A DNA stretch of 64,000 bases from Escherichia phage EC150: the sequence record ON210137.1. The stretch is one strand, 5' to 3'. A program made the translations under genes and the position numbers. The notes under the pieces are model-generated. The model did not search any database. It saw nothing but the letters and a program-made list of their open reading frames with translations, and was not told where the DNA came from. Below, one piece after another: positions 1 to 17,027 of this stretch; within the stretch, counting starts at the first letter, position 1, and every line of letters begins with the position of its first letter.

Positions 1-38
1 GCACGATGCTGACCAGACTTTAATTCAATGGGTAAGGT

Positions 39-464
39 TTGATAACACTGGCGGCGGCAAGTATCGCTACTATGGCGATGAGCGATTCACCACTAAATTC
101 TATAAGGTACTCGACCATGGCTCATGTTAAAGACGAAGTGTTGTTTGGCGCAGAGATTAAGAAACGTGTCAGAGAAATGGCAGGAGAAGAAATAATGAAG
201 CCGCTGCGAAAAGGTTTTGATCACATCAATGGCGTATCCGGCACGAAGGAGATGGGCGTGTTGGTAAAAGACATCCGCATTGGCGATGTCATGGTCATCG
301 ACCGACAAGCACGAGTCGTTATCCAGGTGCAACCGAACGATGGTGAAGGTTGCGTCCTATTGAAGCTGAAGAAGCTTTCATCCAGCCCAGCAAAGGCCGT
401 CATCAAGAAGGTATGGCCCGAAGGATTACGCAAACTCATTCGTCGACCTGTGGAGAATGTGTGA
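39..464 (+). CDS. hypothetical early protein
   Basis: 141-codon ORF at the head of a tightly packed rightward gene train. Start is ambiguous (TTG 39, ATG 72 or ATG 117). Its TGA overlaps the next ATG at 464. No recognisable motif. Confidence 0.5.
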   Translation: MITLAAASIATMAMSDSPLNSIRYSTMAHVKDEVLFGAEIKKRVREMAGEEIMKPLRKGFDHINGVSGTKEMGVLVKDIRIGDVMVIDRQARVVIQVQPNDGEGCVLLKLKKLSSSPAKAVIKKVWPEGLRKLIRRPVENV

Positions 465-700
465 TGGAAGATTATATCAACGCCATGTATATGGCATTCT
501 ATGTCGTGCAACTTCCCAATGGCGCGGTATTCTATGGCGAGTATACCTTTGACGTTCAATATGACGTTTCAGAGCGTACAGTGTTAACAAGGGAGTTGAT
601 TGCGGACCTTAAGGACGACATCAAGCGCGTCGCGCGGCAGCAGTTCAATTTGGATGACACCGTCATCGTTCGAATTACCGGAATAACAGAGGTGCAGTGA
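464..700 (+). CDS. hypothetical early protein
   Basis: In-frame ATG at 464 (MEDYINAMY...) inside track ORF 350..700, overlapping the upstream stop (ATGA). 78 aa. Confidence 0.55.
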   Translation: MEDYINAMYMAFYVVQLPNGAVFYGEYTFDVQYDVSERTVLTRELIADLKDDIKRVARQQFNLDDTVIVRITGITEVQ

Positions 701-1029
701 TGACCCGTGATCAGATACTCGCCGCGCATGAGCGTGAAAAGGTTAAAGAGATTTGGAAAAGGCACAACTACTTTGCCGAATCCTATTATTTCTTAAAGAA
801 GTGCATAAAGGAAAATGCAAAGATGGACAGTACAACATTAACATTTCGTTTATCTCCACATATAGCAAAGCTTAATGCGATATGCGCTTGTCGACTAGCA
901 AGTATGAAGTTCGATAGAGGAAATGACGGAGAGTTGACCATCTATCGATTCTCCCACCGGACCGGAGACACGAAGATAACAAGGACGCGTGAAGAGCTGG
1001 AGATTGACCTACTCCACTATGTAAAATGA
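700..1029 (+). CDS. hypothetical early protein
   Basis: ATG 700 overlaps the upstream TGA (698-700), with GAGG 8 nt upstream. GTG 697 is an alternative start. Followed by a terminator hairpin. Confidence 0.55.
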   Translation: MTRDQILAAHEREKVKEIWKRHNYFAESYYFLKKCIKENAKMDSTTLTFRLSPHIAKLNAICACRLASMKFDRGNDGELTIYRFSHRTGDTKITRTREELEIDLLHYVK

Positions 1030-1035
1030 ATATCA

Positions 1036-1068
1036 AAAAGGTGAGCTAAATGCTTGCCTTTTCTTTTA
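1036..1068 (+). terminator. rho-independent terminator (copy 1 of a duplicated terminator-promoter cassette)
   Basis: AAAAGGTGAGC-TAAAT-GCTTGCCTTTT stem (G-U pairs allowed) followed by a T-rich tract. Nearly identical to 2549-2580. Confidence 0.6.
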
Positions 1069-1082
1069 TCAATACTTATACT
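1054..1082 (+). promoter_or_regulatory. sigma70-like promoter
   Basis: TTGCCT (1054-1059), 17-nt spacer, TATACT (1077-1082). The -35 element lies in the descending arm of the terminator stem. Gene start at 1115. Confidence 0.5.
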
Positions 1083-1114
1083 CTTTTCATCAAGACTAAC
1101 AAGCGAGGTGAATT

Positions 1115-1363
1115 ATGGAACGTTATATAGATGCAGAGTGCTTGATAAGTGCAGGTTTGAATGAGGCTGTAGAAGGAAGTAAATATGCCATCTGTCAATC
1201 TGATTATCCGTACAAAGATACTTTTTGGATTGAATTTGGATCAAAAGGGAGTAAGCACCACGCCACTTATGACGTTTGGAAAGCACCAAGCGGACTTTTT
1301 TACATTTTAAAACGTCATTGCCAGCCAGAGTCAGGCGTATTGGCTGTCTTCAAGGAGGTGTGA
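1115..1363 (+). CDS. hypothetical protein
   Basis: 82-aa ORF with GAGGTG about 6 nt upstream of the ATG. Confidence 0.6.
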   Translation: MERYIDAECLISAGLNEAVEGSKYAICQSDYPYKDTFWIEFGSKGSKHHATYDVWKAPSGLFYILKRHCQPESGVLAVFKEV

Positions 1364-1683
1364 TTGTGATTTACTTAGGCATCGACCAGGAACAAGACGA
1401 GCGGTTAGGAAGCGTGTTAAACGTAGACTTGAACACAGCTGTACACATCAAGCCTTGGCCAGAGGACCACGGCGACGTAGTTGTACCCGTTGCGCCTTGG
1501 ACGCGTTACGTTGCCATTGACAATAACGGCCTTGTTCATTGTTACTCAGAAAGGCCAACGTATTTCGAGATGTACCGCGAATGGCTGATGACTAGTTGGG
1601 CAAAGGTGCGCTGTTGCGGCGAAGTCGGCCTGGAGGGGTGGAGCTTCGAGGCTAGTGAATCGTGTGTCGAGGTGAAATTATGA
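1360..1683 (+). CDS. hypothetical protein (shares an RYVAxDxNG...Y..xP motif with 4516..5007)
   Basis: Track ORF 1276..1683. Likely start is GTG 1360 (overlaps the upstream TGA) or GTG 1366, after GGAGG. The upstream part overlaps the previous gene. Confidence 0.5.
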   Translation: MIVIYLGIDQEQDERLGSVLNVDLNTAVHIKPWPEDHGDVVVPVAPWTRYVAIDNNGLVHCYSERPTYFEMYREWLMTSWAKVRCCGEVGLEGWSFEASESCVEVKL

Positions 1684-1898
1684 ATGCCGTGCTGGGTAAG
1701 CTGTCTTTCAACAAGCGCAATGAGTTGCGCATGGTGTCTCGTTTTCAATTTTTATTAAATGCTATGTCAAGCGTTGCCATAGCAATGCTTCGCGCTGATT
1801 GCCCTGCTGAAAAGCGTGAGACTTTATTCAAGCGTCACCAACAATTACGAAATGCTGCTTATAAACTGCAGCAATATGCTATGGAGTATGCAAAATGA
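1680..1898 (+). CDS. hypothetical protein
   Basis: In-frame ATG 1680 (MNAVLGKL...) overlapping the upstream stop (ATGA). Confidence 0.5.
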   Translation: MNAVLGKLSFNKRNELRMVSRFQFLLNAMSSVAIAMLRADCPAEKRETLFKRHQQLRNAAYKLQQYAMEYAK

Positions 1899-2287
1899 GA
1901 ATGAAGCGTTGCCCTTACTGCCACGATGTAATGCATCTTCCACATGAAGAGTTTGTGCAGCACATGACTAATTGTGATAAGAATCCTAAGAGCGAAAGCC
2001 AGCTTGAAGAAAGAATGTTTCTGGTGTCGTTTAAAGCTTCTGCCTATGGCGTGAAACTGGCTTATGGCGCGAGCGGCGCACCAAGTGCTATCAACTGCCC
2101 AACGACATTGAGAAGTGAAATCGACTCGATGCAGCTTGCGGCTTGGATTAACGTCAAGGAAGGCCTCACGCCGCACTTCATCGCGCGCATCCAGTCCCAG
2201 ATTCTTCAAATCAAGCGCGAATACAACCGCGACGTTACTGAAGTGAAGGTCTTGTCCATCACGCCGATGAATAAGGAGCTGGCTTGA
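1895..2287 (+). CDS. hypothetical protein with N-terminal Cys/His cluster
   Basis: ATGA overlap with the upstream gene. N-terminal CPYCHDVMHLPHEEFVQHMTNC looks like a small zinc-binding motif. Confidence 0.55.
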   Translation: MRMKRCPYCHDVMHLPHEEFVQHMTNCDKNPKSESQLEERMFLVSFKASAYGVKLAYGASGAPSAINCPTTLRSEIDSMQLAAWINVKEGLTPHFIARIQSQILQIKREYNRDVTEVKVLSITPMNKELA

Positions 2288-2544
2288 ATAAGGGACCGAT
2301 GGCGCCACTGGCCCTTGCCGCGCGGAAGCTTCGACAGGCCGTTAATGGGTCGCGGCCCGTGGTGTTAACACTAGACGATGCAAAGGCACTGGTAGAGCTA
2401 CTCGACGAGAACAACCGACGCAAGAATAGAGAGAACACATTAAAGTACCGCGTCACGCCAGCCGGACGCGAGTGTGAAAAGAAAGCTTACTTGCGGCGTA
2501 AGTTAAGGTCAGTCGGTCTACACGAAGAAGCCGACCAGATTTAA
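2284..2544 (+). CDS. hypothetical protein
   Basis: 86-codon ORF. Start is TTG 2284 or ATG 2299. Followed by terminator copy 2. Confidence 0.5.
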   Translation: MNKGPMAPLALAARKLRQAVNGSRPVVLTLDDAKALVELLDENNRRKNRENTLKYRVTPAGRECEKKAYLRRKLRSVGLHEEADQI

Positions 2545-2548
2545 TTCG

Positions 2549-2580
2549 AAAAGGTGAGCTAAATGCTTGCCTTTTTATTT
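2549..2580 (+). terminator. rho-independent terminator (copy 2 of the cassette)
   Basis: Same AAAAGGTGAGCTAAATGCTTGCCTTTTT hairpin as at 1036, followed by a T-tract. Confidence 0.6.
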
Positions 2581-2594
2581 GTCTGTATTATACT
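2567..2594 (+). promoter_or_regulatory. sigma70-like promoter
   Basis: TTGCCT (2567-2572), 16-nt spacer, TATACT (2589-2594). Gene start at 2623. Confidence 0.5.
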
Positions 2595-2622
2595 TACTTC
2601 ATCAAGCAAAGGAGAGGTTATT

Positions 2623-2928
2623 ATGAGTACCGAAGCTATGAAGAGCAAGTTGTTTGAGGTGATGCAGCCCGCTGTCGAGTGCGGAGCTATTCAGGAGTTC
2701 AAAGAGACGCAAGAAGGCGGTGAGCCAGTATTCTTCTTCAAGAACAAGAAAGGTGCGGCGGCTGCGGTGATGCTCTTGAAGAACAGCGACACGACCTTTA
2801 TCCTTTGCGCAGGCGGTTATGACCTTGTTGCCGATGATGCCTACATCACCTGTGCGACGGGTCTTAATCCTATGTTAACGTTTGAGCGTCGCGGCATTCG
2901 TGTTGCGACGTTTGGAGGCGGTTTATGA
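2623..2928 (+). CDS. hypothetical protein
   Basis: In-frame ATG 2623 (MSTEAMKSK...) preceded by AAAGGAGAGG. The upstream part of track ORF 2563 covers the promoter. Confidence 0.6.
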   Translation: MSTEAMKSKLFEVMQPAVECGAIQEFKETQEGGEPVFFFKNKKGAAAAVMLLKNSDTTFILCAGGYDLVADDAYITCATGLNPMLTFERRGIRVATFGGGL

Positions 2929-3110
2929 GCACCGAAGTCCATAACGCATCAGCACTGGTAAGCTTTTACCGAAACAAAGGCGTGTCGCTAGTTAAAACGC
3001 CGCAAGGCATGCTGTTCTTTGGCACGCGATTCCTTAAGGCTTCGGAGCGTGAAACGCTGTCTAAATTCGACCAGAAGACATTACACGCAGTTTGGAGAAG
3101 ACAGCAATGA
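2925..3110 (+). CDS. hypothetical protein
   Basis: 61-aa ORF with ATGA overlap to the upstream gene. Confidence 0.5.
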   Translation: MSTEVHNASALVSFYRNKGVSLVKTPQGMLFFGTRFLKASERETLSKFDQKTLHAVWRRQQ

Positions 3111-3307
3111 CATCAAATCTTAAGGCCCGTTTATTATTCATCAAGCCGCATGTGCCGTATAAGATTAGTAAGCGCACCTGGATTAACATTTACAACCGCA
3201 GCGGCGACCGTTGTTTGTACAAGGCAAAGCGGCGCAAGAAGGTATATTTAAAGGCTGTGATGTCGCAACCCGTCGATGCATTCAACATCGGCGAAAATGA
3301 ACTGTAA
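3107..3307 (+). CDS. hypothetical basic protein
   Basis: In-frame ATG 3107 (MTSNLKARL...) overlapping the upstream TGA. K/R-rich. Confidence 0.45.
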   Translation: MTSNLKARLLFIKPHVPYKISKRTWINIYNRSGDRCLYKAKRRKKVYLKAVMSQPVDAFNIGENEL

Positions 3308-3339
3308 ATCGGCTATCAAATTGAACTCGGAGTAAAGAA

Positions 3340-3849
3340 ATGAAAATCGAACAACTCGAAGCAGTATTGGAAATGGCTGTAAAGGCAGGCGCAATCAGAA
3401 GCTATAGCCGCGAGAAGTCGGATGACGCTGCGCACTTTTGTCGCAACTTCTATATCGTCGGCAACCTTAATGACCACTACACCATCGAGTGGTATACTAA
3501 TATGATGGCTCTTAAGTCGCGCACCATGGAGCTTTGGTGTGATGATGTCTGCTTATCCAACACCCATCCATCCTACGACGTTGCGTTAGCATTCTATTAC
3601 GGAAGCCGTCAACCTGTCGCCCACATCGGTGAGAAGTATGAGCACCTTAAGGCGCGACCAGAGGAATCAATGGACGGTTGGATTTATTGGGCTGGCGTCA
3701 ACAATCCTGTTCCTGGTAAGAAGGTCATGTTTAAATTGCGCTTCGGCTATGAATCTAAATCACCTGCTCTTTCAGATGATTTGAGATGGGAGATTGTTGA
3801 CGATGCTTATGCAACTGACATCATTGCTTATCGAGTCATGGAGGAATAA
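3340..3849 (+). CDS. hypothetical protein with a C-terminal W..G.NPVPGK...AYRV domain
   Basis: 169-aa ORF with GGAG 7 nt upstream. The C-terminal ~58 aa are colinear with the C-terminus of 5004..5429. Confidence 0.6.
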   Translation: MKIEQLEAVLEMAVKAGAIRSYSREKSDDAAHFCRNFYIVGNLNDHYTIEWYTNMMALKSRTMELWCDDVCLSNTHPSYDVALAFYYGSRQPVAHIGEKYEHLKARPEESMDGWIYWAGVNNPVPGKKVMFKLRFGYESKSPALSDDLRWEIVDDAYATDIIAYRVMEE

Positions 3850-6204: not shown

Positions 6205-6660
6205 CACATTTGATACGCCTAAAATACGGCTAAAAATTAAGCGTATCATGGCTGCAGGCCGCGTCGTTCCTGGATTCTTCTTTTTAAAATTGGTACACCC
6301 TTACGTCATGATACGTCATGGTTTTTTATCCGTATCAGTGTACAGCCCTTGCCGCGCCTGGCTTGTACATTAATCTTACGGATGATACGGATAAAACTGG
6401 GCATCGTTATATATAAAACTCCAAAAATAAATAAACTCCATTTTAAAAACATTTATATTAATTTTTTTCATATCCTCATACTTATGTTAATTTATATATT
6501 TAACGTATCATCCGTAAGATATAAGTAAAAACAAAGACTTGCGGCAATACGGATGATACGTCATGATACGCTTCAACCAGCCAGCAGCGGCTAAGTCATT
6601 GATTTGCATAACAAGCGGCGAAAGGGATGGATTTCTTTTATACGTATCAAACAGTACACC
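6205..6660. repeat. iteron-like GGATGATACG arrays in opposed orientation around a 114-bp AT-rich core (module A)
   Basis: GATACG at 6212, 6310, 6384, 6555, 6565. CGTATC at 6242, 6331, 6504, 6653. Perfect 15-bp inverted repeat at 6375-6389 / 6504-6518. Homologous module at 22190-22460. Confidence 0.7.
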
Positions 6661-6717
6661 ACGCACCACGGTCCGCTATTCATTCAGTACTATGATTTGT
6701 GTACGTTTACAGCCAAT

Positions 6718-6746
6718 TTGAACATCAATCTGCACTTGAATATAAT
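6718..6746 (+). promoter_or_regulatory. sigma70-like promoter upstream of 6799..7272
   Basis: TTGAAC (6718-6723), 17-nt spacer, TATAAT (6741-6746). The two ATTTGCACTAT motifs lie in the predicted leader. Confidence 0.5.
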
Positions 6747-6798
6747 GTTCATTCATTGTATAATTCACACTATTAATTTGCACTATGGGATTTGCACT

Positions 6799-7272
6799 AT
6801 GAGTCAAGATTATGTAGCAATGCCTGAAGACTTTGAAGACCCGCGATTTGCAGAGCATAATCAGGCATTATTCGATGAGTTCATTGACCTTGTTATTCAG
6901 GGCCATGACATGCGCGCAGCTTTTGCACTAGTATTTGGCATGGAGGTTGCGACCGATAACTACACTGGCCAGCGAGTCCTCTGCACGCAACGCAATCCGT
7001 ACTACAAGATGCGCTACAAAAAGCGTATGGAAGAGATGCCATTGAAGGAATTGTGGAGCGTAAAGAGTTCCATCCACAATTTAGTGAAGCTTGTGCGTGA
7101 TCCAGAAGTCGCGGCGTCAGCCAAGCTTAATGCCATTCGTGAACTGAATATCATCTACGGCATCACGATGATTGATGAGAATGGCAATAGTAAAATGGGC
7201 CGTTCCATGGACGATTTCTACAAGGATTTTGGAGAGGCAGCCAAAGAGGGTGAGCAATTCTCCCGCCACTAG
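6799..7272 (+). CDS. putative DNA-binding protein, possibly a terminase small subunit
   Basis: In-frame ATG 6799 (MSQDYVAMPED...). The N-terminal extension from 6604 in the track covers the promoter. The layout (helix-rich N-terminus, then ...AKLNAIRELNIIYG) resembles TerS proteins, but this is a weak by-eye call. Confidence 0.45.
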   Translation: MSQDYVAMPEDFEDPRFAEHNQALFDEFIDLVIQGHDMRAAFALVFGMEVATDNYTGQRVLCTQRNPYYKMRYKKRMEEMPLKELWSVKSSIHNLVKLVRDPEVAASAKLNAIRELNIIYGITMIDENGNSKMGRSMDDFYKDFGEAAKEGEQFSRH

Positions 7273-7284
7273 CCAATTTGCACT

Positions 7285-7325
7285 ATAAAACGGCCCTAGA
7301 ACACATTTTCTCCACTTCTAGGGCC
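7285..7325 (-). terminator. rho-independent terminator for the leftward 8692->7387 operon
   Basis: 10-bp stem GGCCCTAGAA / TTCTAGGGCC (7292-7301 / 7316-7325), followed on the minus strand by GTTTTAT. Confidence 0.55.
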
Positions 7326-7386
7326 ATCGGTAATACGACGGGGAAGGTTACAACCATAAACGCGTTAGAAAGTGTATTATTATAAG

Positions 7387-7650
7387 TCATCTTTTAGTCA
7401 CTTTACGTAACAATTTACGACCTTCCGCCGTCCAGTCGAACGACTCCACCAGCAGATTTGCACTATAACCTAAGACGATGCGCCCTTTCTCGTTATCGAC
7501 CCGCCAACAAGTCTCGAATAGCATTCGATTTGCACTATTAACTATCGCCGCAACGCGCGCTGGGTAAGCGCAATTTGCACTATGGTCGTAAAGGGATAAG
7601 GTGCGACCACTTCCGATGGACAACGTAGCGATGAGAATAAGCGTATTCAT
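7387..7650 (-). CDS. hypothetical protein with signal-peptide-like N-terminus
   Basis: 87-aa ORF with GGTGG 3 nt before the ATG and a minus-strand terminator downstream. It carries three in-frame ATTTGCACTAT copies (read as Ser-Ala-Asn), so coding status is uncertain. Confidence 0.4.
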   Translation of the reverse strand: MNTLILIATLSIGSGRTLSLYDHSANCAYPARVAAIVNSANRMLFETCWRVDNEKGRIVLGYSANLLVESFDWTAEGRKLLRKVTKR

Positions 7651-7700
7651 AAGCCACCAATTTGCACTATGAAAAGCGACCCCGAAGGGCCGCCATTCGA

Positions 7701-8327
7701 TTAGATGATCTGGAATGTGTATGACTTGTTGCCGAACTCGAAGTTCAAGCGCCCAGCTTCCTTAAGCTTCATGCGGAAGCGAATGTGCTTGCTATCCGGT
7801 AATCCCAGCGCGATGAAAGCTACGCGGACCGATTTGAACTCGCCTACACCCTCGACCATAACGCCGTTACGGGTGAGACGCTTTTGCGCCACTTCCTTAT
7901 TATCCCAACTTTTTGCAATGCCTTCGCTATTCGAACGGCGATGGGAAGAAGTTCCATTTTGCACTACGCAATTTGCACTATCGTTTAGGCCGCTCTTAAC
8001 GAAGGCTTCATACTCTTCGTCGGTCATCGCGTCGAGTTCTTCCTGAGTCGGCTCAGACTTTTTAACGACCGCACGCGCCTTATGCGTTTTTACATCGCTG
8101 GGCACTTCCTCGCGCGGCTTCGCGTCGGGAATGGGCGATTCGTTGGACGGCTCATCGAGCGCGTTCAAGGACTCGATTAACGCGATTACGCGAGTCTCGG
8201 CGGTCCGGCGGTCCGCGAACTTTTTAATCGGCTTCGAACCGGAATTTGCGTTGTAAAATGCAACGAGGTCGGCGGTCTTAGTTGCGATAACGTCGCCGCT
8301 AGTCGAGAAGCGATTTAAGCTAACCAT
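7701..8327 (-). CDS. hypothetical protein
   Basis: 208-aa ORF with AGGAG 7 nt upstream. Acidic central linker. Contains motif copies at 7956 and 7971 (..DSANCVVQNG..). Confidence 0.6.
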   Translation of the reverse strand: MVSLNRFSTSGDVIATKTADLVAFYNANSGSKPIKKFADRRTAETRVIALIESLNALDEPSNESPIPDAKPREEVPSDVKTHKARAVVKKSEPTQEELDAMTDEEYEAFVKSGLNDSANCVVQNGTSSHRRSNSEGIAKSWDNKEVAQKRLTRNGVMVEGVGEFKSVRVAFIALGLPDSKHIRFRMKLKEAGRLNFEFGNKSYTFQII

Positions 8328-8407
8328 AATAAACTCCTATTTGTTAGGGCGCTAAGCGCGAAAGAATTTTATTAAAGCGCCGCGCACGACGCTCTTAAAA
8401 TCCTCTC

Positions 8408-8692
8408 TTACGCTTCGACGAGGGAGAAGGTTTCAAATTCTTCTTCGCCCATAACGAGTAAAATATTCCCGATTTCGACCGCTTCGAAGAAGTATCCGTT
8501 AACGTTTACTTCGAAGGCTTCGCGGTCCGATTCCGGTAACGCCGCGTAAAGTTTAAAAGCCTCGGCGACCGTTACCCCACCCGCTTCGATAGTTTGGTCT
8601 ACGTTCGCGGCGTAGACTTCGGATAAATTTTGTTTTACGCCGTAGTTCTCGACGATAGCGTTACGGATAGAAGAAACGTTAAGAATAGCCAT
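8408..8692 (-). CDS. small acidic protein, paralog of 9326..9616
   Basis: 94 aa. Shares S.IR.A.VE ... L..VY..NVD.TIE ... V.(V/I)NG..(F/Y)....EIG with 9326..9616. Has its own promoter and a conserved leader. Confidence 0.65.
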   Translation of the reverse strand: MAILNVSSIRNAIVENYGVKQNLSEVYAANVDQTIEAGGVTVAEAFKLYAALPESDREAFEVNVNGYFFEAVEIGNILLVMGEEEFETFSLVEA

Positions 8693-8760
8693 TTTAAACT
8701 CCTAGTTGGGAGAGGCGTTAACGACCTATTCGTTAACTCATCCCGTCCCGATATGAGTAC

Positions 8761-8788
8761 ATTATAATATAGTGTAGAAAAAAGTAAA
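8761..8788 (-). promoter_or_regulatory. sigma70-like promoter (copy 1 of 3)
   Basis: Minus strand reads GTGCTTTACTTTTTTCTACACTATAT-TATAAT. TTTACT (8788-8783), 16-nt spacer, TATAAT (8766-8761). Confidence 0.5.
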
Positions 8789-8832
8789 GCACTTTTTCGA
8801 TAAAAATGCGATAAATTATTTTATCTTTTTCC

Positions 8833-8860
8833 TTTACTTCTTCGTACACTCGCGTATACT
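8833..8860 (+). promoter_or_regulatory. sigma70-like promoter (copy 2 of 3)
   Basis: TTTACT (8833-8838), spacer TCTTCGTACACTCGCG (16 nt), TATACT (8855-8860). Same TTTACTTCTTCGTACACT core as at 9230. Confidence 0.5.
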
Positions 8861-8915
8861 TGTTTATATCGAGACGGGCGATGGCCTTCCTTCTACTAGC
8901 ATCGGGAGTTTTATT

Positions 8916-9218
8916 ATGACTACTTTAATCTCTTCTATCCTTACTTACGACGAAGACCGTTTAACCGTTCGTTCTCTTATCGCCGCCGTTAACGCGGAAC
9001 TAGAATCCACCATCATTAAGGTCCGCGCGGTCGCTTTCGTCGGCCTTTCCTTCGACGATATTAAGTATGCCGAACGTAGCGCCATCCGCTTCGCGAAGAC
9101 CGACGACGAAGCCGTTACCCTTATCGAGACGGTTACGCCGCGCGGCGAAGCGTTAATTATCGTCGAGTATATCGACGTAGAGGGCGATAAGGCTTATAAA
9201 TATTTTATCGCAAAATAA
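8916..9218 (+). CDS. hypothetical small acidic protein
   Basis: 100-aa ORF with GGGAG 8 nt upstream. CpG-rich codon usage like its neighbours. Confidence 0.6.
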   Translation: MTTLISSILTYDEDRLTVRSLIAAVNAELESTIIKVRAVAFVGLSFDDIKYAERSAIRFAKTDDEAVTLIETVTPRGEALIIVEYIDVEGDKAYKYFIAK

Positions 9219-9229
9219 CGAAAAAGTGC

Positions 9230-9258
9230 TTTACTTCTTCGTACACTAAGACTATAAT
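9230..9258 (+). promoter_or_regulatory. sigma70-like promoter (copy 3 of 3)
   Basis: TTTACT (9230-9235), 17-nt spacer, TATAAT (9253-9258). Preceded by CGAAAAAGTGC, as in the minus-strand copy. Confidence 0.55.
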
Positions 9259-9325
9259 GTTTTATATCGAGAGGGGAGAGGAAGCGAATAGGTCGCCTTC
9301 CCGCCCTCCCAACTAGGAGAATATT

Positions 9326-9616
9326 ATGATTACTTTATCCGCTATCCGTTCCGCTCGCGTCGAGACTTCCGAAAACTCTAACGTATTTGGCGAAACCTTA
9401 GAGAGCGTTTATCTCTCTAACGTCGACGCGACTATCGAATCTATTTATGAGCCGATCAACTTCCTCGACCTTTACAAGTATCGCGACGAGGACATCGTAT
9501 CATCCCGCGTAACTATCAACGGCTTCGTCTATACGATTACCGAAATCGGCGGCGAATATATCGCGGTCCCGCAACTCGGCGGCGAAGTAACTTATTTTAA
9601 AATCGTCTCCTTATAA
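9326..9616 (+). CDS. small acidic protein, paralog of 8408..8692
   Basis: 96 aa. Leader carries the CCCAACTAGGAG RBS context and the AATAGGT-loop hairpin (9280-9301), both shared with the 8408..8692 leader. Confidence 0.65.
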   Translation: MITLSAIRSARVETSENSNVFGETLESVYLSNVDATIESIYEPINFLDLYKYRDEDIVSSRVTINGFVYTITEIGGEYIAVPQLGGEVTYFKIVSL

Positions 9617-9635
9617 TACCCTTCCGTTACTAATA

Positions 9636-9662
9636 GGCCGCGCTTAGTCGCGGCTTTTCTTC
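9636..9662 (+). terminator. rho-independent terminator
   Basis: GCCGCG-CTTAGT-CGCGGC (9637-9654) followed by TTTTCTT. Confidence 0.65.
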
Positions 9663-9780
9663 GTCCCTATCCCGATGCGCGTCTACGCGAAAACTCCTTT
9701 ATCCTTCCCTTCGTCGTCGCATAATCTTCTTCGAGATGCTCCTTAGTTCGCATAACAGGTATTACGTTAAATGGAGAACA

Positions 9781-9854
9781 TCGCGTAAGTCCTTGTTTTA
9801 TATAGACACCTATATCGGACCGTTAGGGCGGGTCGCGTAAGTCGTTGTTTTATA
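9781..9854. repeat. 22-bp direct repeat TCGCGTAAGTC(C/G)TTGTTTTATA
   Basis: Copies at 9781-9802 and 9833-9854 (21/22 identical, 52-bp period) in non-coding DNA. Confidence 0.6.
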
Positions 9855-9979
9855 AAGGCGCAAAACTTTCCCTTCGTTCCGAACTAAAACGAGAAATGTG
9901 CCGACCCTTCGCCCGAAAATAGTACGTATGCGAAATTACATGCATCTCGAATAATCCCTCCCGATATTATCCTACACGC

Positions 9980-10042
9980 AATCATTCGCTTTCGAATCAT
10001 TATGCTTCATATTGTTATGCGTCGAATCATTCGCTTTCGAAT
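9980..10042. repeat. 18-bp direct repeat AATCATTCGCTTTCGAAT
   Basis: Exact copies at 9980-9997 and 10025-10042. Each contains the small inverted repeat ATTCG-N4-CGAAT. Confidence 0.6.
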
Positions 10043-10131
10043 TGTAACGCTGGAAACTGTAACGGCGATTGATTATTGCGTTCGTGTGGTTTTTATGGCA
10101 TGGGTCTTTTGGTGCGTTTTGGTACTTGATG

Positions 10132-10245
10132 AAATTTGCAGTACACTAATCAAAATACGACACATTTGGTCCACTAACTTTTCAAAGAAAAAGTCCTAGA
10201 CAGTACCGTACTATTTTGTACCCACAGGAAATTTGCAGTACACTC
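10132..10245. repeat. direct repeat GAAATTTGCAGTACACT
   Basis: Copies near 10131-10147 and 10229-10245. ATTTGCA is shared with the ATTTGCACTAT motif. Confidence 0.5.
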
Positions 10246-10255
10246 CTGCGCGGCA

Positions 10256-10286
10256 GGCAAAACAAAGGGCCGCACTAAGCGACCCA
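10256..10286 (-). terminator. rho-independent terminator for the leftward module
   Basis: Minus strand reads GGGTCGC-TTAGT-GCGGCCC followed by TTTGTTTTG, just downstream of the 10315 stop. Confidence 0.5.
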
Positions 10287-10314
10287 CGATTCACGGTTAA
10301 ATCAGCAACACCCA

Positions 10315-10695
10315 CTATTCGCTCTTATGGGCATCACCAAAGCCATCCGCAATCTGGCTGATCAATGATTCAATGGACACAGTTTTACCAATTGATCGAG
10401 CGGTAATAGCAAGCATATTATCAATCAAACCATGATTGGATGCGTATGGTTCAGGTTTTGAATCATCTTCAGGACAACCAAAAAGCTGGTCGCGCAAACT
10501 TTCGAGAGAACGCTCAACATTTTCCAACTTCTCTTCTAAATCGGATTGGCGACGTAAAACCCATGTCAAGTCACGGTTGCCAACTTCCAATCCATCAGAA
10601 TAGCAAGGTGGAGCGTCAATTTTGTTGCTGGAACCAAAAGCAGTGCCGCTGCCTTTAGTATAAGTATGGCTCATAGAATCATTTTTATTTGACAT
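10315..10695 (-). CDS. hypothetical protein
   Basis: 126-aa ORF. Last gene of the leftward 15388->10315 module. Confidence 0.55.
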   Translation of the reverse strand: MSNKNDSMSHTYTKGSGTAFGSSNKIDAPPCYSDGLEVGNRDLTWVLRRQSDLEEKLENVERSLESLRDQLFGCPEDDSKPEPYASNHGLIDNMLAITARSIGKTVSIESLISQIADGFGDAHKSE

Positions 10696-10769
10696 ATCAT
10701 TACCTTTAATATTTGGTGATTAACAATAACTATAATAAAGCCGCATAGCGCGGCATTCAAATCGATTTA

Positions 10770-11018
10770 TTAATTGTGACGATTGGATTCATCAATCGAT
10801 ACCAATTGTGCAGGGTTGCCGGATACCGTTGCGCCGATGATTCCCATTTGAGAGAAAAATTCTGAATAAACCTCTTTCCAGTACTTGCGCGCTGCTTTCT
10901 GGGCTTGACCTTTGCGCTTATAACTTTTGCCTTGAAAGATGAAGCGGTCTTTTGGAGCGTAATACTCCACCACACCTTCCAGCCATTGTAAGAATGCTAC
11001 TGATTCATTTTTATTCAT
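10770..11018 (-). CDS. hypothetical protein
   Basis: 82-aa ORF. Preferred over the overlapping 72-aa frame at 10757..10975. Confidence 0.55.
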   Translation of the reverse strand: MNKNESVAFLQWLEGVVEYYAPKDRFIFQGKSYKRKGQAQKAARKYWKEVYSEFFSQMGIIGATVSGNPAQLVSIDESNRHN

Positions 11019-15566: not shown

Positions 15567-17027
15567 ATGAATAAAATATTAACACATAATTGGAAAGTCA
15601 TGTACCAGTTGAATCCTGCTTTAAGAGAAGTCTGGAAGACGAAAGCGCGATACAAAGTCATATACGGCGGTCGTGCATCTTCCAAATCGCACGATGCCGC
15701 TGGTTTTGCTATTTATTTGGCGGCAAACTTCAAATTAAAATTCCTTTGCGTTCGACAATTCCAGAACAAGATTTCTGAATCAGTATATACGCTATTAAAA
15801 GACAAAATAGAAATTTCTGATTTCAAAGACGAGTTCAACTTATTAAAGAACTCTATTGAACACAAAAGAACAAAATCTGAATTCTTATTTTACGGTATCG
15901 CACGCAACGTTGATGAAATCAAATCAACAGAAGGCGTTGATGTTCTTTGGCTTGAAGAAGCGCATGCGCTGACTGAAGAGCAGTGGGACATCATTGAGCC
16001 GACAATTCGTAAGGAAGGGTCCGAAATATGGATCATATTTAACCCTGATGAAGAGGCTGATTTTGTCTACCAGAACTTTGTCATGCGACCGCCGAAGAAT
16101 GCCATCGTTAAGAAGATTAACTGGCAAGACAACCCATTCTTGTCGCAAACAATGCTGGATGTTATCGCTGGCATGTATGAGCGCGACCCGAAAAAGGCAG
16201 AACACGTTTATGGCGGAGTACCGAAGACTGGCGGCGACAAGTCGGTAATCAACCGTGCATTCGTCAAGGCCGCGCTAAACCTCCACAAACACCCTACGCT
16301 GGGATGGAGCTTGTCAGGGTCTAACCGTATAGGCTTTGACGTGGCGGACGACGGCGACGACTTAAACGCCACAGCATTTGTCACTGGCAACGTATTGCGC
16401 GGCATCAAGACATGGGAAGGTCTGGAGGATGAATTGCTTAAGTCCGCAAGCGGAGTCTGGAAAGACGCATTGACATTCGGCGCATCAATCACCTATGACG
16501 CCATCGGTGTTGGTGCATTTGCTGGTTCAAAATTTGATGAGCTTAATGAGTGTGCAATCCATGAAAATCCAACATTCCCAAGAATCGAATTTAATGCGTT
16601 CAACGCGCAAGGTGCTGTTGATGATCCTGATGACGTTTTCCTTGAGTTACCACACGTTGAAATACTCAATAAAGACCATTTCGCAAACATAAAAGCGCAA
16701 AAATGGACTGAGATTGCCGAACGATTCAGAAAGACATATGAGTATGCGACAGGGCAAGCCGTATATCCGACCGATGAGTTGATTTCCATCGACACAGACG
16801 GCATCCCAGAACTTGGTATTCCCGCTTGGTCTGCGGAAGAGATTGAGACGTTTCTTTTTGAGATGTCAGCGCCGCGCAAAGATACGTCTGTTCTTGGTAA
16901 GTTCAAAGTTGAATCGAAAAAAGATATGGCAAAGCGTGGAGTCAAATCGCCTAACAAAGCGGACGCAGCAATCATGGCATTGATGAAACCAATTGTTGCA
17001 GCATCCGGCTTCTTCTCTAACCTTTAA
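15567..17027 (+). CDS. terL: terminase large subunit
   Basis: 486-codon ORF. Walker A-like GGRASSKS, then LWLEEA (Walker B-like), then a C-terminal nuclease-type region with acidic motifs. Resembles PBSX/headful-type TerL. The true start is probably ATG 15600 (GGAAAG RBS). Confidence 0.9.
   Translation: MNKILTHNWKVMYQLNPALREVWKTKARYKVIYGGRASSKSHDAAGFAIYLAANFKLKFLCVRQFQNKISESVYTLLKDKIEISDFKDEFNLLKNSIEHKRTKSEFLFYGIARNVDEIKSTEGVDVLWLEEAHALTEEQWDIIEPTIRKEGSEIWIIFNPDEEADFVYQNFVMRPPKNAIVKKINWQDNPFLSQTMLDVIAGMYERDPKKAEHVYGGVPKTGGDKSVINRAFVKAALNLHKHPTLGWSLSGSNRIGFDVADDGDDLNATAFVTGNVLRGIKTWEGLEDELLKSASGVWKDALTFGASITYDAIGVGAFAGSKFDELNECAIHENPTFPRIEFNAFNAQGAVDDPDDVFLELPHVEILNKDHFANIKAQKWTEIAERFRKTYEYATGQAVYPTDELISIDTDGIPELGIPAWSAEEIETFLFEMSAPRKDTSVLGKFKVESKKDMAKRGVKSPNKADAAIMALMKPIVAASGFFSNL

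Follow-up and report, generated by a model that had tools for sequence, protein, structure and literature searches.

What do two divergently arranged genes for similar small acidic proteins do for a phage, and are they truly copies of one gene? The question is raised by a locus of Escherichia phage EC150 (sequence record ON210137.1), analyzed here within a stretch of 64,000 nucleotides, termed the window. The window belongs to a Wifcevirus, a genus of E. coli myophages related to Pbunavirus (PMC11990801). An initial annotation had described two paralogous proteins flanking a third acidic protein, and the three open reading frames (ORFs), here termed A, M and B, were confirmed in this arrangement:

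8408..8692, minus strand: gene A, 94 amino acids (aa), isoelectric point (pI) 4.05, acidic, distant homolog of B, in a variable slot (ORF)
8916..9218, plus strand: gene M, 100 aa, pI 4.67, acidic, conserved partner of B (ORF)
9326..9616, plus strand: gene B, 96 aa, pI 4.23, acidic, core member of the family (ORF)

Sequence comparisons point to a common origin of A and B. BLASTP aligned the two proteins at 33% identity over 82 aa (E = 2e-6), and their Smith-Waterman score of 74 compares with 28.3 +/- 5.1 for 2000 shuffles (z = 8.9), none of which scored as high. Comparison of the two family alignments by hhalign gave a probability of 93% and an E-value of 2.9e-7 over 75 columns. The three methods agree, and the motifs on which the homology had originally been based are seen in the alignments. 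A and B are true, distant homologs, which represent two diverged copies of one phage-specific family. Both are rich in acidic residues: A possesses 16 Asp and Glu against 4 Lys and Arg in 94 aa (net charge about -12), and B possesses 14 against 6 in 96 aa (about -8). M showed no relationship to A or B by BLASTP, shuffling or hhalign profile comparison. M and the A' protein described below were also considered as hidden members of the family and were rejected, since neither hhalign nor BLASTP detected a relationship. A hidden Markov model scan of all six-frame ORFs found no third copy in the window.

The position of the cassette was derived from related genomes. About 28 Wifcevirus records, which comprise E. 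coli and Shigella myophages including Mansfield, RCIP0363, Bas98-101, WFC, WFH and ECML-117, match the region 7300-10800 at 93-96% identity. A direct terminal repeat (DTR) predicted by PhageTerm spans bases 1-3673 of the annotated Mansfield record, and its ends fall at window positions 6440 and 10109 when mapped by homology. In addition, the region is present twice in the records of WFC, WFH, SP13 and Ro157lw, which include both genome ends. Given these mapped ends and the doubled region, the A-M-B cassette appears to sit in the middle of the DTR. The location of such genes within the terminal repeat, as in terminal-repeat early modules of the T5 pre-early and SPO1 type, is found here by homology:

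6440..10109, no strand: DTR (~3.7 kb), which encloses the whole cassette (boundaries inferred by homology to Mansfield)

Upstream of each of the three genes lies a copy of the same promoter, as the initial annotation had proposed. In the 64 kb, there are exactly three matches to the pattern CTTTACTT[C/T]TT[C/T][G/C]TACACT with TATAAT or TATACT 3' of it, one each in front of A, M and B, and none in shuffled sequences. The promoter 19-mer CTTTACTTCTTCGTACACT, with three mismatches at most, likewise occurs three times against zero expected, each copy 5' of TATAAT or TATACT. The three sigma70-like promoters score 9-10 of 12 consensus matches; judged from its sequence, each small gene has a host sigma70-type promoter, which is a further feature of terminal-repeat early modules. 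The promoters, together with the gene that follows A and the end of the rightward unit, are as follows:

8761..8789, minus strand: P_L, leftward early promoter, TTTACT, 16 nt, TATAAT, with the conserved spacer (motif)
8833..8860, plus strand: P_M, TTTACT, 16 nt, TATACT, with the same 19-nt core as P_B (motif, repeat family D11)
9230..9258, plus strand: P_B, TTTACT, 17 nt, TATAAT (motif)
7701..8327, minus strand: 208-aa gene, phrog_4730, 3' of A, probably co-transcribed from P_L (ORF, PHROG match)
9635..9666, plus strand: intrinsic-terminator-like hairpin and T tract that ends the rightward M-B unit (labelled a terminator in the records of Mansfield and WFC)

The claim that each gene is independently promoted holds insofar as each has its own promoter copy; A, however, is probably the first gene of a leftward operon with the 208-aa gene. 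This assignment follows from ECML-117, which lacks A and in which P_L and its leader drive the 208-aa gene directly, and from the lack of any promoter or terminator found between A and the 208-aa gene.

The leaders of A and B have in common not only the promoter, but also the initial transcribed sequence, the Shine-Dalgarno (SD) block (CCCAACTAGGAG) and a hairpin in the 5' untranslated region (5'UTR):

8717..8737, minus strand: 5'UTR hairpin of the leftward transcript, 8-bp stem and AUAGG loop, apex CGA-AUAGG-UCG (fold and covariation)
9280..9301, plus strand: 5'UTR hairpin of the B transcript, apex as in the P_L hairpin, lower stem compensated (fold and covariation)

The apex CGA-AUAGG-UCG is unvarying across Wifceviruses, and changes in the lower stem are compensated, with the variants GUUAAC/GUUAAC, GGUAGC/GCUACC and GCUAAC/GUUAGC in addition to G-U forms. 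In this small sample of six distinct variants, 97.9% of the cells are paired, three pairs have changed on both sides, and none of 500 shuffles matched the pairing or covariation score; shifts of register abolished the pairing signal. Small as the sample is, it gives a clean signal. The leader of M lacks this hairpin, and the hairpin has no match in Rfam. It could be a stabilizer of the mRNA or an operator for an RNA-binding regulator.

Comparison of the Wifcevirus records separated core from exchangeable genes. B and M are carried by all 28 records and by an uncultured distant relative. A is found in 11 of the 28, at 97-100% identity, and its metagenomic copies are similarly conserved. In 11 other records, the exact position of A is taken by A', a strongly acidic and unrelated protein of 104 aa that has no similarity to A, B or M by BLASTP and hhalign and no family match, and that co-occurs with differing B alleles. 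In ECML-117, vB_Eco4M-7 and RCIP0319, the slot is empty, and P_L and the hairpin leader run into the 208-aa gene. The cassettes A and A' are bounded by the conserved leader and a conserved 80-nt spacer, with a duplicated SD/start junction (repeat D10). A therefore occupies a slot with three states, A, A' or empty:

L003:1970-2284 (phage WFC), minus strand: A' cassette, 104 aa, ending in DDEE, in the slot of window 8408-8692
8328..8407, minus strand: 80-nt spacer from A to the 208-aa gene, present behind A and A' and missing when the slot is empty (comparison)

A second presence/absence slot lies directly 3' of the B stop codon (~9606-9611). It is empty in the window and holds a 69-aa gene in ECML-117, FEC19 and vB_Eco4M-7 (L002:3966-4175). 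The 69-aa gene is labelled 'transcriptional regulator' in the ECML-117 RefSeq record, for which Pfam gives no support. The locus had been described as an accessory island, which holds for A and the varying slots, but not for the whole, as the locus is the center of the DTR and B and M are core genes.

That over half of the records lack A, with no evident consequence, and that an unrelated gene replaces it in others, would suit a decaying or functionless hitch-hiking duplicate, with no joint function and B alone of importance. We consider this very improbable: the ORF of A is uninterrupted, with 97-100% identity across the 11 records and the metagenomic copies, its strong SD and promoter are kept, and at only 33% identity to B it still retains the family-conserved positions over its full length.

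A, M, B and their neighbors are under purifying selection overall, which indicates that they are real genes. B evolves much faster than the neighboring genes. Between divergent allele types, B has a nonsynonymous divergence (dN) of 0.17-0.32 and an omega of 0.35-0.49 (closely related alleles give lower values), compared to a dN of 0.01-0.05 and an omega of 0.05-0.13 for the neighboring 208-aa gene. The variation is concentrated within the gene. Codons 1-23 are near-identical in all alleles, with a synonymous divergence (dS) of 0.06; codons 39-60 fall into two ancient types with saturated synonymous sites (pS 0.7-0.9). In vB_Eco4M-7 and in L011, the allele is clearly recombinant in its combination of segments. 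Recombination has made B a mosaic, the central segment of which is hypervariable, and such an allele structure is typical of genes engaged in conflict with the host.

Beyond the genus, relatives of the family are few. When A or B was used to search 5.8 billion proteins, all matches were of the Wifcevirus type. A profile search run exhaustively over 1.84 billion representatives contributed a single small protein, P0020 (103 aa, E = 2.4e-11). A word-indexed search seeded with P0020 added P0024 and P0025. Scans of IMG/VR and metagenomes yielded no further relatives, IMG/VR giving Wifceviruses only, as did tblastn with a distant member. Profile matches to giant adhesins were rejected, as they are summed matches of 6-8.6 bits to a hairpin of ~23 residues ('VTVNGxxYxAT') of Big_13 repeats and do not reflect homology; Pfam finds the bacterial Ig-like Big_13 domain (PF19077) in the adhesin, and not in A or B. 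Altogether, the family appears confined to Wifcevirus and a few uncultured relatives, and represents a narrow new protein family.

P0020 sits on L005, a 23-kb contig of the uncultured distant relative, the large terminase of which is 78% identical to that of the window, with the other proteins at 35-50% identity. On L005, a small terminase-like (TerS-like) gene, an 86-aa gene and a 187-aa gene on the minus strand are followed by a B-like and then an M-like gene. The M-like protein of 125 aa shares 27% identity with M (E = 7e-6), and its gene adjoins the B-like gene in L005, L006 and L007; the 208-aa protein also has a homolog of 48% identity in L005. Because of the syntenic B-like and M-like neighbors in L005, we regard B and M as an old, conserved pair, the order of which is reversed in that contig. 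In a distance tree, A branches outside the clade of B and the B-like proteins of the distant relatives, which argues that A is not a recent tandem duplicate. It is either an ancient paralog or a homolog gained by recombination from an unsampled relative.

The promoters are preserved over the same distance. The core of P_M and P_B including the spacer (positions 8832-8875 and 9229-9272) has ~25 nt identical in L005 (L005:5951-5995), and it is also kept in L007 (L007:78-120). The spacer (CTTTACTTCTTCGTACACT) and the initial transcribed sequence (TATATCGAGA) are retained nearly base for base in a relative with proteins of 35-50% identity. Such conservation of a spacer is unusual for sigma70 and seems to exceed the need of a plain sigma70 promoter. 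Of the non-Wifcevirus IMG/VR contigs with the 19-mer (L028, L030 and L032), L028 and L030 were examined; in these unrelated contigs it lies inside a 410-aa ORF, and the matches look like chance.

Searches against known families are in accord with the initial view that none can be recognized. Scans of A, M, B, A' and the distant members against Pfam, PHROGs and PADLOC gave nothing above noise. At E <= 1, A, B and M matched neither Ocr nor ArdA in Pfam, and the PADLOC defense profiles showed no match for A, B, M, A', P0020 or P0025. The candidate domain ABC-3C MC2 of Pfam was rejected as below threshold (E = 0.13; 12.6 bits compared to a cut-off of 26.9). A sequence search of the PDB with the A/B family profile returned only noise (E >= 0.03), and the M profile returned nothing.

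Structure prediction, which had been suggested as a check, was run for B and gave a confident AlphaFold2 model (pLDDT 88.7, pTM 0.79) with three short helices and seven strands. It was built from a 12-sequence alignment; a 9-sequence run, before three distant members were added, gave a pLDDT of 51. The BFVD model of the WFH B ortholog superposes on it with a TM of 0.82, which provides independent corroboration. PDB fold searches, which indirectly also took in the solved structures of anti-defense proteins, found no relative of the B model among solved structures. The sole structural neighbor outside the family, found by Foldseek against BFVD, is gp129 of Shigella phage MK-13 (probability 0.97, TM 0.60 over the full length). 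Residues M1, I7, A10, E13, G22, V28, Y29, I37 and G75 are invariant throughout the family. Most of them are hydrophobic or glycine; E13 is the one acidic residue, and His, Cys, Ser and Lys do not occur among them. This lack of conserved residues of catalytic type argues for a binder rather than an enzyme.

The Wifceviruses Bas98-101 are insensitive to all tested defenses, including type I, II and III restriction-modification (RM), with the exception of EcoP1_I, and no mechanism of protection is known (PMC11990801). We tentatively prefer the reading that A, B and M are immediate-early, non-enzymatic binders of host proteins, and favor an anti-defense role because of the slot variability, the allele structure of B and the unexplained resistance of the genus. 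The host sigma70 RNA polymerase would transcribe the cassette once a genome end enters the cell, and the hairpin probably stabilizes or co-regulates the leftward and B mRNAs. The products would be soluble proteins, neither enzymes nor parts of the virion, that bind a host protein and thereby act stoichiometrically, the favored target being a defense or nucleic-acid-processing factor, for instance a restriction complex or nuclease. The hypervariable helix/loop of B (residues ~39-60) may form the specificity surface, and A may provide a second specificity. The common leader would be an obvious recombination anchor for the A cassette, and the common UTR probably guided the insertion of a B-like cassette through recombination. 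Mass spectrometry of virion and lysate of vB_Eco4M-7 and ECML-117 did not detect the M and B orthologs, and detected the 208-aa protein weakly, in vB_Eco4M-7 only (PMC7048862). A literature search found no functional or transcriptomic reports on Wifcevirus early genes.

Host takeover or anti-defense had been the speculation of the initial annotation. The DTR site, the promoters, the small acidic products, the non-detection of the M and B orthologs by mass spectrometry, the slot variation and the mosaic B all fit, but no fold or sequence likeness to known anti-defense or takeover proteins was found in Pfam, PHROGs, PADLOC or the PDB. Several further points weigh against the anti-defense binder. 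The charges of about -8 for B and -12 for A appear only moderately negative, far from DNA mimics such as Ocr, and together with the missing fold match this weakens the DNA-mimic version. The omega of B never exceeds 1. The early timing is deduced from position and consensus promoters, and the DTR of the window is placed by homology only, as are its boundaries. The resistance of the genus could stem from DNA modification or from other genes. Moreover, B is conserved as a core gene beyond the genus, which suits an essential part in takeover or a function internal to the phage no less than it suits anti-defense.

General host takeover seems somewhat doubtful as well, yet nearly as likely as anti-defense, given that B and M belong to the core. 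In this reading B and M, with A as an option, would bind central components of the host, for example RNA polymerase, nucleoid proteins or the machinery of replication or division, and shut them down, and this very early redirection of the cell would contribute to the reported very short latent period. The presence of the pair in every record and in the distant relative agrees with such a role, as do the location in the DTR and the strong promoter for each gene, which are like those of the SPO1 module, and the infection cycle of 3-5 min that the BASEL paper cites from an earlier report (PMC11990801). However, if the targets were conserved host machinery, there would be no obvious selection for B alleles that are ancient, recombining and hypervariable, nor for presence and absence of A and A', and the B model bears no likeness to a known takeover protein in fold searches.

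The DTR holds other elements, some of which bear on a role within the phage itself. The first is a terminase gene candidate:

6799-7272, plus strand: TerS-like gene, inside the DTR (small terminase by HHpred in the Mansfield record)

This gene matches phrog_4783 strongly, and its match to a TerS PHROG is weak (E = 0.025); the large terminase gene lies ~8 kb away, at ~15600-17015. The 11-mer ATTTGCACTAT occurs in eight exact copies, all on the plus strand of the left half of the DTR (6776-7981) and nowhere else in the 64 kb, a count reached by none of 100 shuffles. A tandem pair directly adjoins the start codon of this TerS-like gene (6799), and the remaining copies lie within minus-strand genes. 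The array is also present in L001, L002, L003, L011 and L012, and L005 keeps four exact copies (L005:4210-5174). It could act in cis in packaging, terminase binding or injection control, or serve a regulator. At the left boundary of the DTR (6300-6570), there is a cluster of short perfect inverted and direct repeats, in which TACGTCATGATACG occurs twice and 14-nt perfect palindromic arms lie at 6324/6383 and 6503/6548; these repeats may be linked to end formation.

With a TerS-like gene in the same DTR and eight exact ATTTGCACTAT sites specific to it, the small proteins might instead serve the phage internally, as an early-to-middle regulator or chaperone, in protection or processing of the genome ends, or as a replication or packaging factor starting at the DTR. 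The invariant-loop hairpin on two transcripts, which suggests dedicated post-transcriptional control, and the core status of B point the same way. We nevertheless hold this unlikely. Acidic proteins with no recognizable nucleic-acid-binding features would be poor binders of DNA or RNA, and an internal partner would co-evolve slowly, which clashes with a mosaic, hypervariable B beside near-invariant neighbors; the optional A, A' and empty states also oppose an essential structural role for A.

The anti-defense reading can also be drawn more broadly, with B as the core and A as an optional second copy of a so far unrecognized kind of broad anti-restriction or anti-defense protein that would explain the resistance of Wifcevirus to type I-III RM and other defenses. 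Expression from the DTR would then precede exposure of the remaining genome, the hypervariable segment (residues ~39-60) would determine the target, and the A/A'/empty slot and the 69-aa slot would make up a compact site for anti-defense cassettes around a common promoter and hairpin. So wide a role seems rather improbable. The DTR of the window contains six EcoP1_I (AGACC) sites in both orientations, one EcoKI site and no EcoRI or EcoRV sites. The absence of the latter two is not significant, because only 0.7 and 0.5 sites, respectively, are expected. These counts are compatible with a T5-like logic, yet are no evidence for it. In the 64-kb window, 12 GAATTC were counted, compared to 36-38 EcoRI sites per genome in the BASEL table, a clear mismatch.

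Biocontrol of E. coli O157 is a present or proposed use of Wifceviruses, and the early genes of the DTR are the obvious place to seek the resistance mechanism. The search is now narrowed to a compact module, comprising the B and M pair, two swappable slots, and a common promoter and RNA hairpin. If the function is confirmed, the module would provide a new family of inhibitors, and phage engineering would gain a portable cassette for early expression; otherwise, A, B and M remain ordinary early ORFans.

Among known systems, the pre-early genes of T5 and BF23 are likewise small, mostly uncharacterized and located inside the DTR, the first-step-transfer region (PMC10644984). They have strong promoters read by host RNA polymerase, as proposed for the Wifcevirus cassette, and these phages resist most RM without DNA modification, according to two reports (PMC10644984, PMC7472727). 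T5-like phages are described there as resistant unless sites lie in the first-entering terminal repeat that encodes the pre-early genes (PMC10644984). The EcoP1_I sites in the Wifcevirus DTR, which belong to the sole RM system reported effective, recall this situation, with counts too small for significance. By contrast, no homology in sequence or fold was found, Wifcevirus is a myovirus with a DTR of 3.7 kb compared to ~10 kb, and two-step DNA injection is not known for it.

The terminal redundancy of SPO1 holds a host-takeover module, in which Gp44, Gp46 and Gp53 target RNA polymerase, HU and ClpCP. Its small early genes are clustered, several with their own strong early promoters, and among the products are acidic proteins that inhibit host proteins (PMC8208478, PMC8892312, PMC6873191). 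SPO1 differs in host and lineage and shows no homology, and the Wifcevirus module has only about 3-6 genes; the paralogy and the swappable slot are not among the SPO1 features described in the abstracts of these reports. No PHROG, Pfam or PDB match links the Wifcevirus proteins to named early proteins of T5 or SPO1.

Gp0.3 (Ocr) of phage T7 is also a small acidic protein, encoded at the first-entering genome end and expressed from strong promoters of the host type, and T7 resists restriction. Ocr carries a far more negative net charge than A or B, and its fold is helical, whereas B is predicted to have a mixed alpha/beta fold with a seven-stranded sheet. A and B have no Pfam or fold match to Ocr or ArdA in addition to their far lower charge, and PDB fold searches found no similarity of the B fold to a solved DNA mimic. 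Gp129 of MK-13 (Agtrevirus), an uncharacterized protein of 93 aa, is similar in size, and its C-terminal half has a strand-turn-strand like that of B. It differs in sequence (15% identity, E = 0.22), and its gene follows the major capsid gene within a series of small genes; being outside a terminal repeat, with no Pfam match and no annotation, it provides no functional information. Altogether, the type of module, a set of early genes in a terminal repeat, is familiar, and the protein family that it carries is new.

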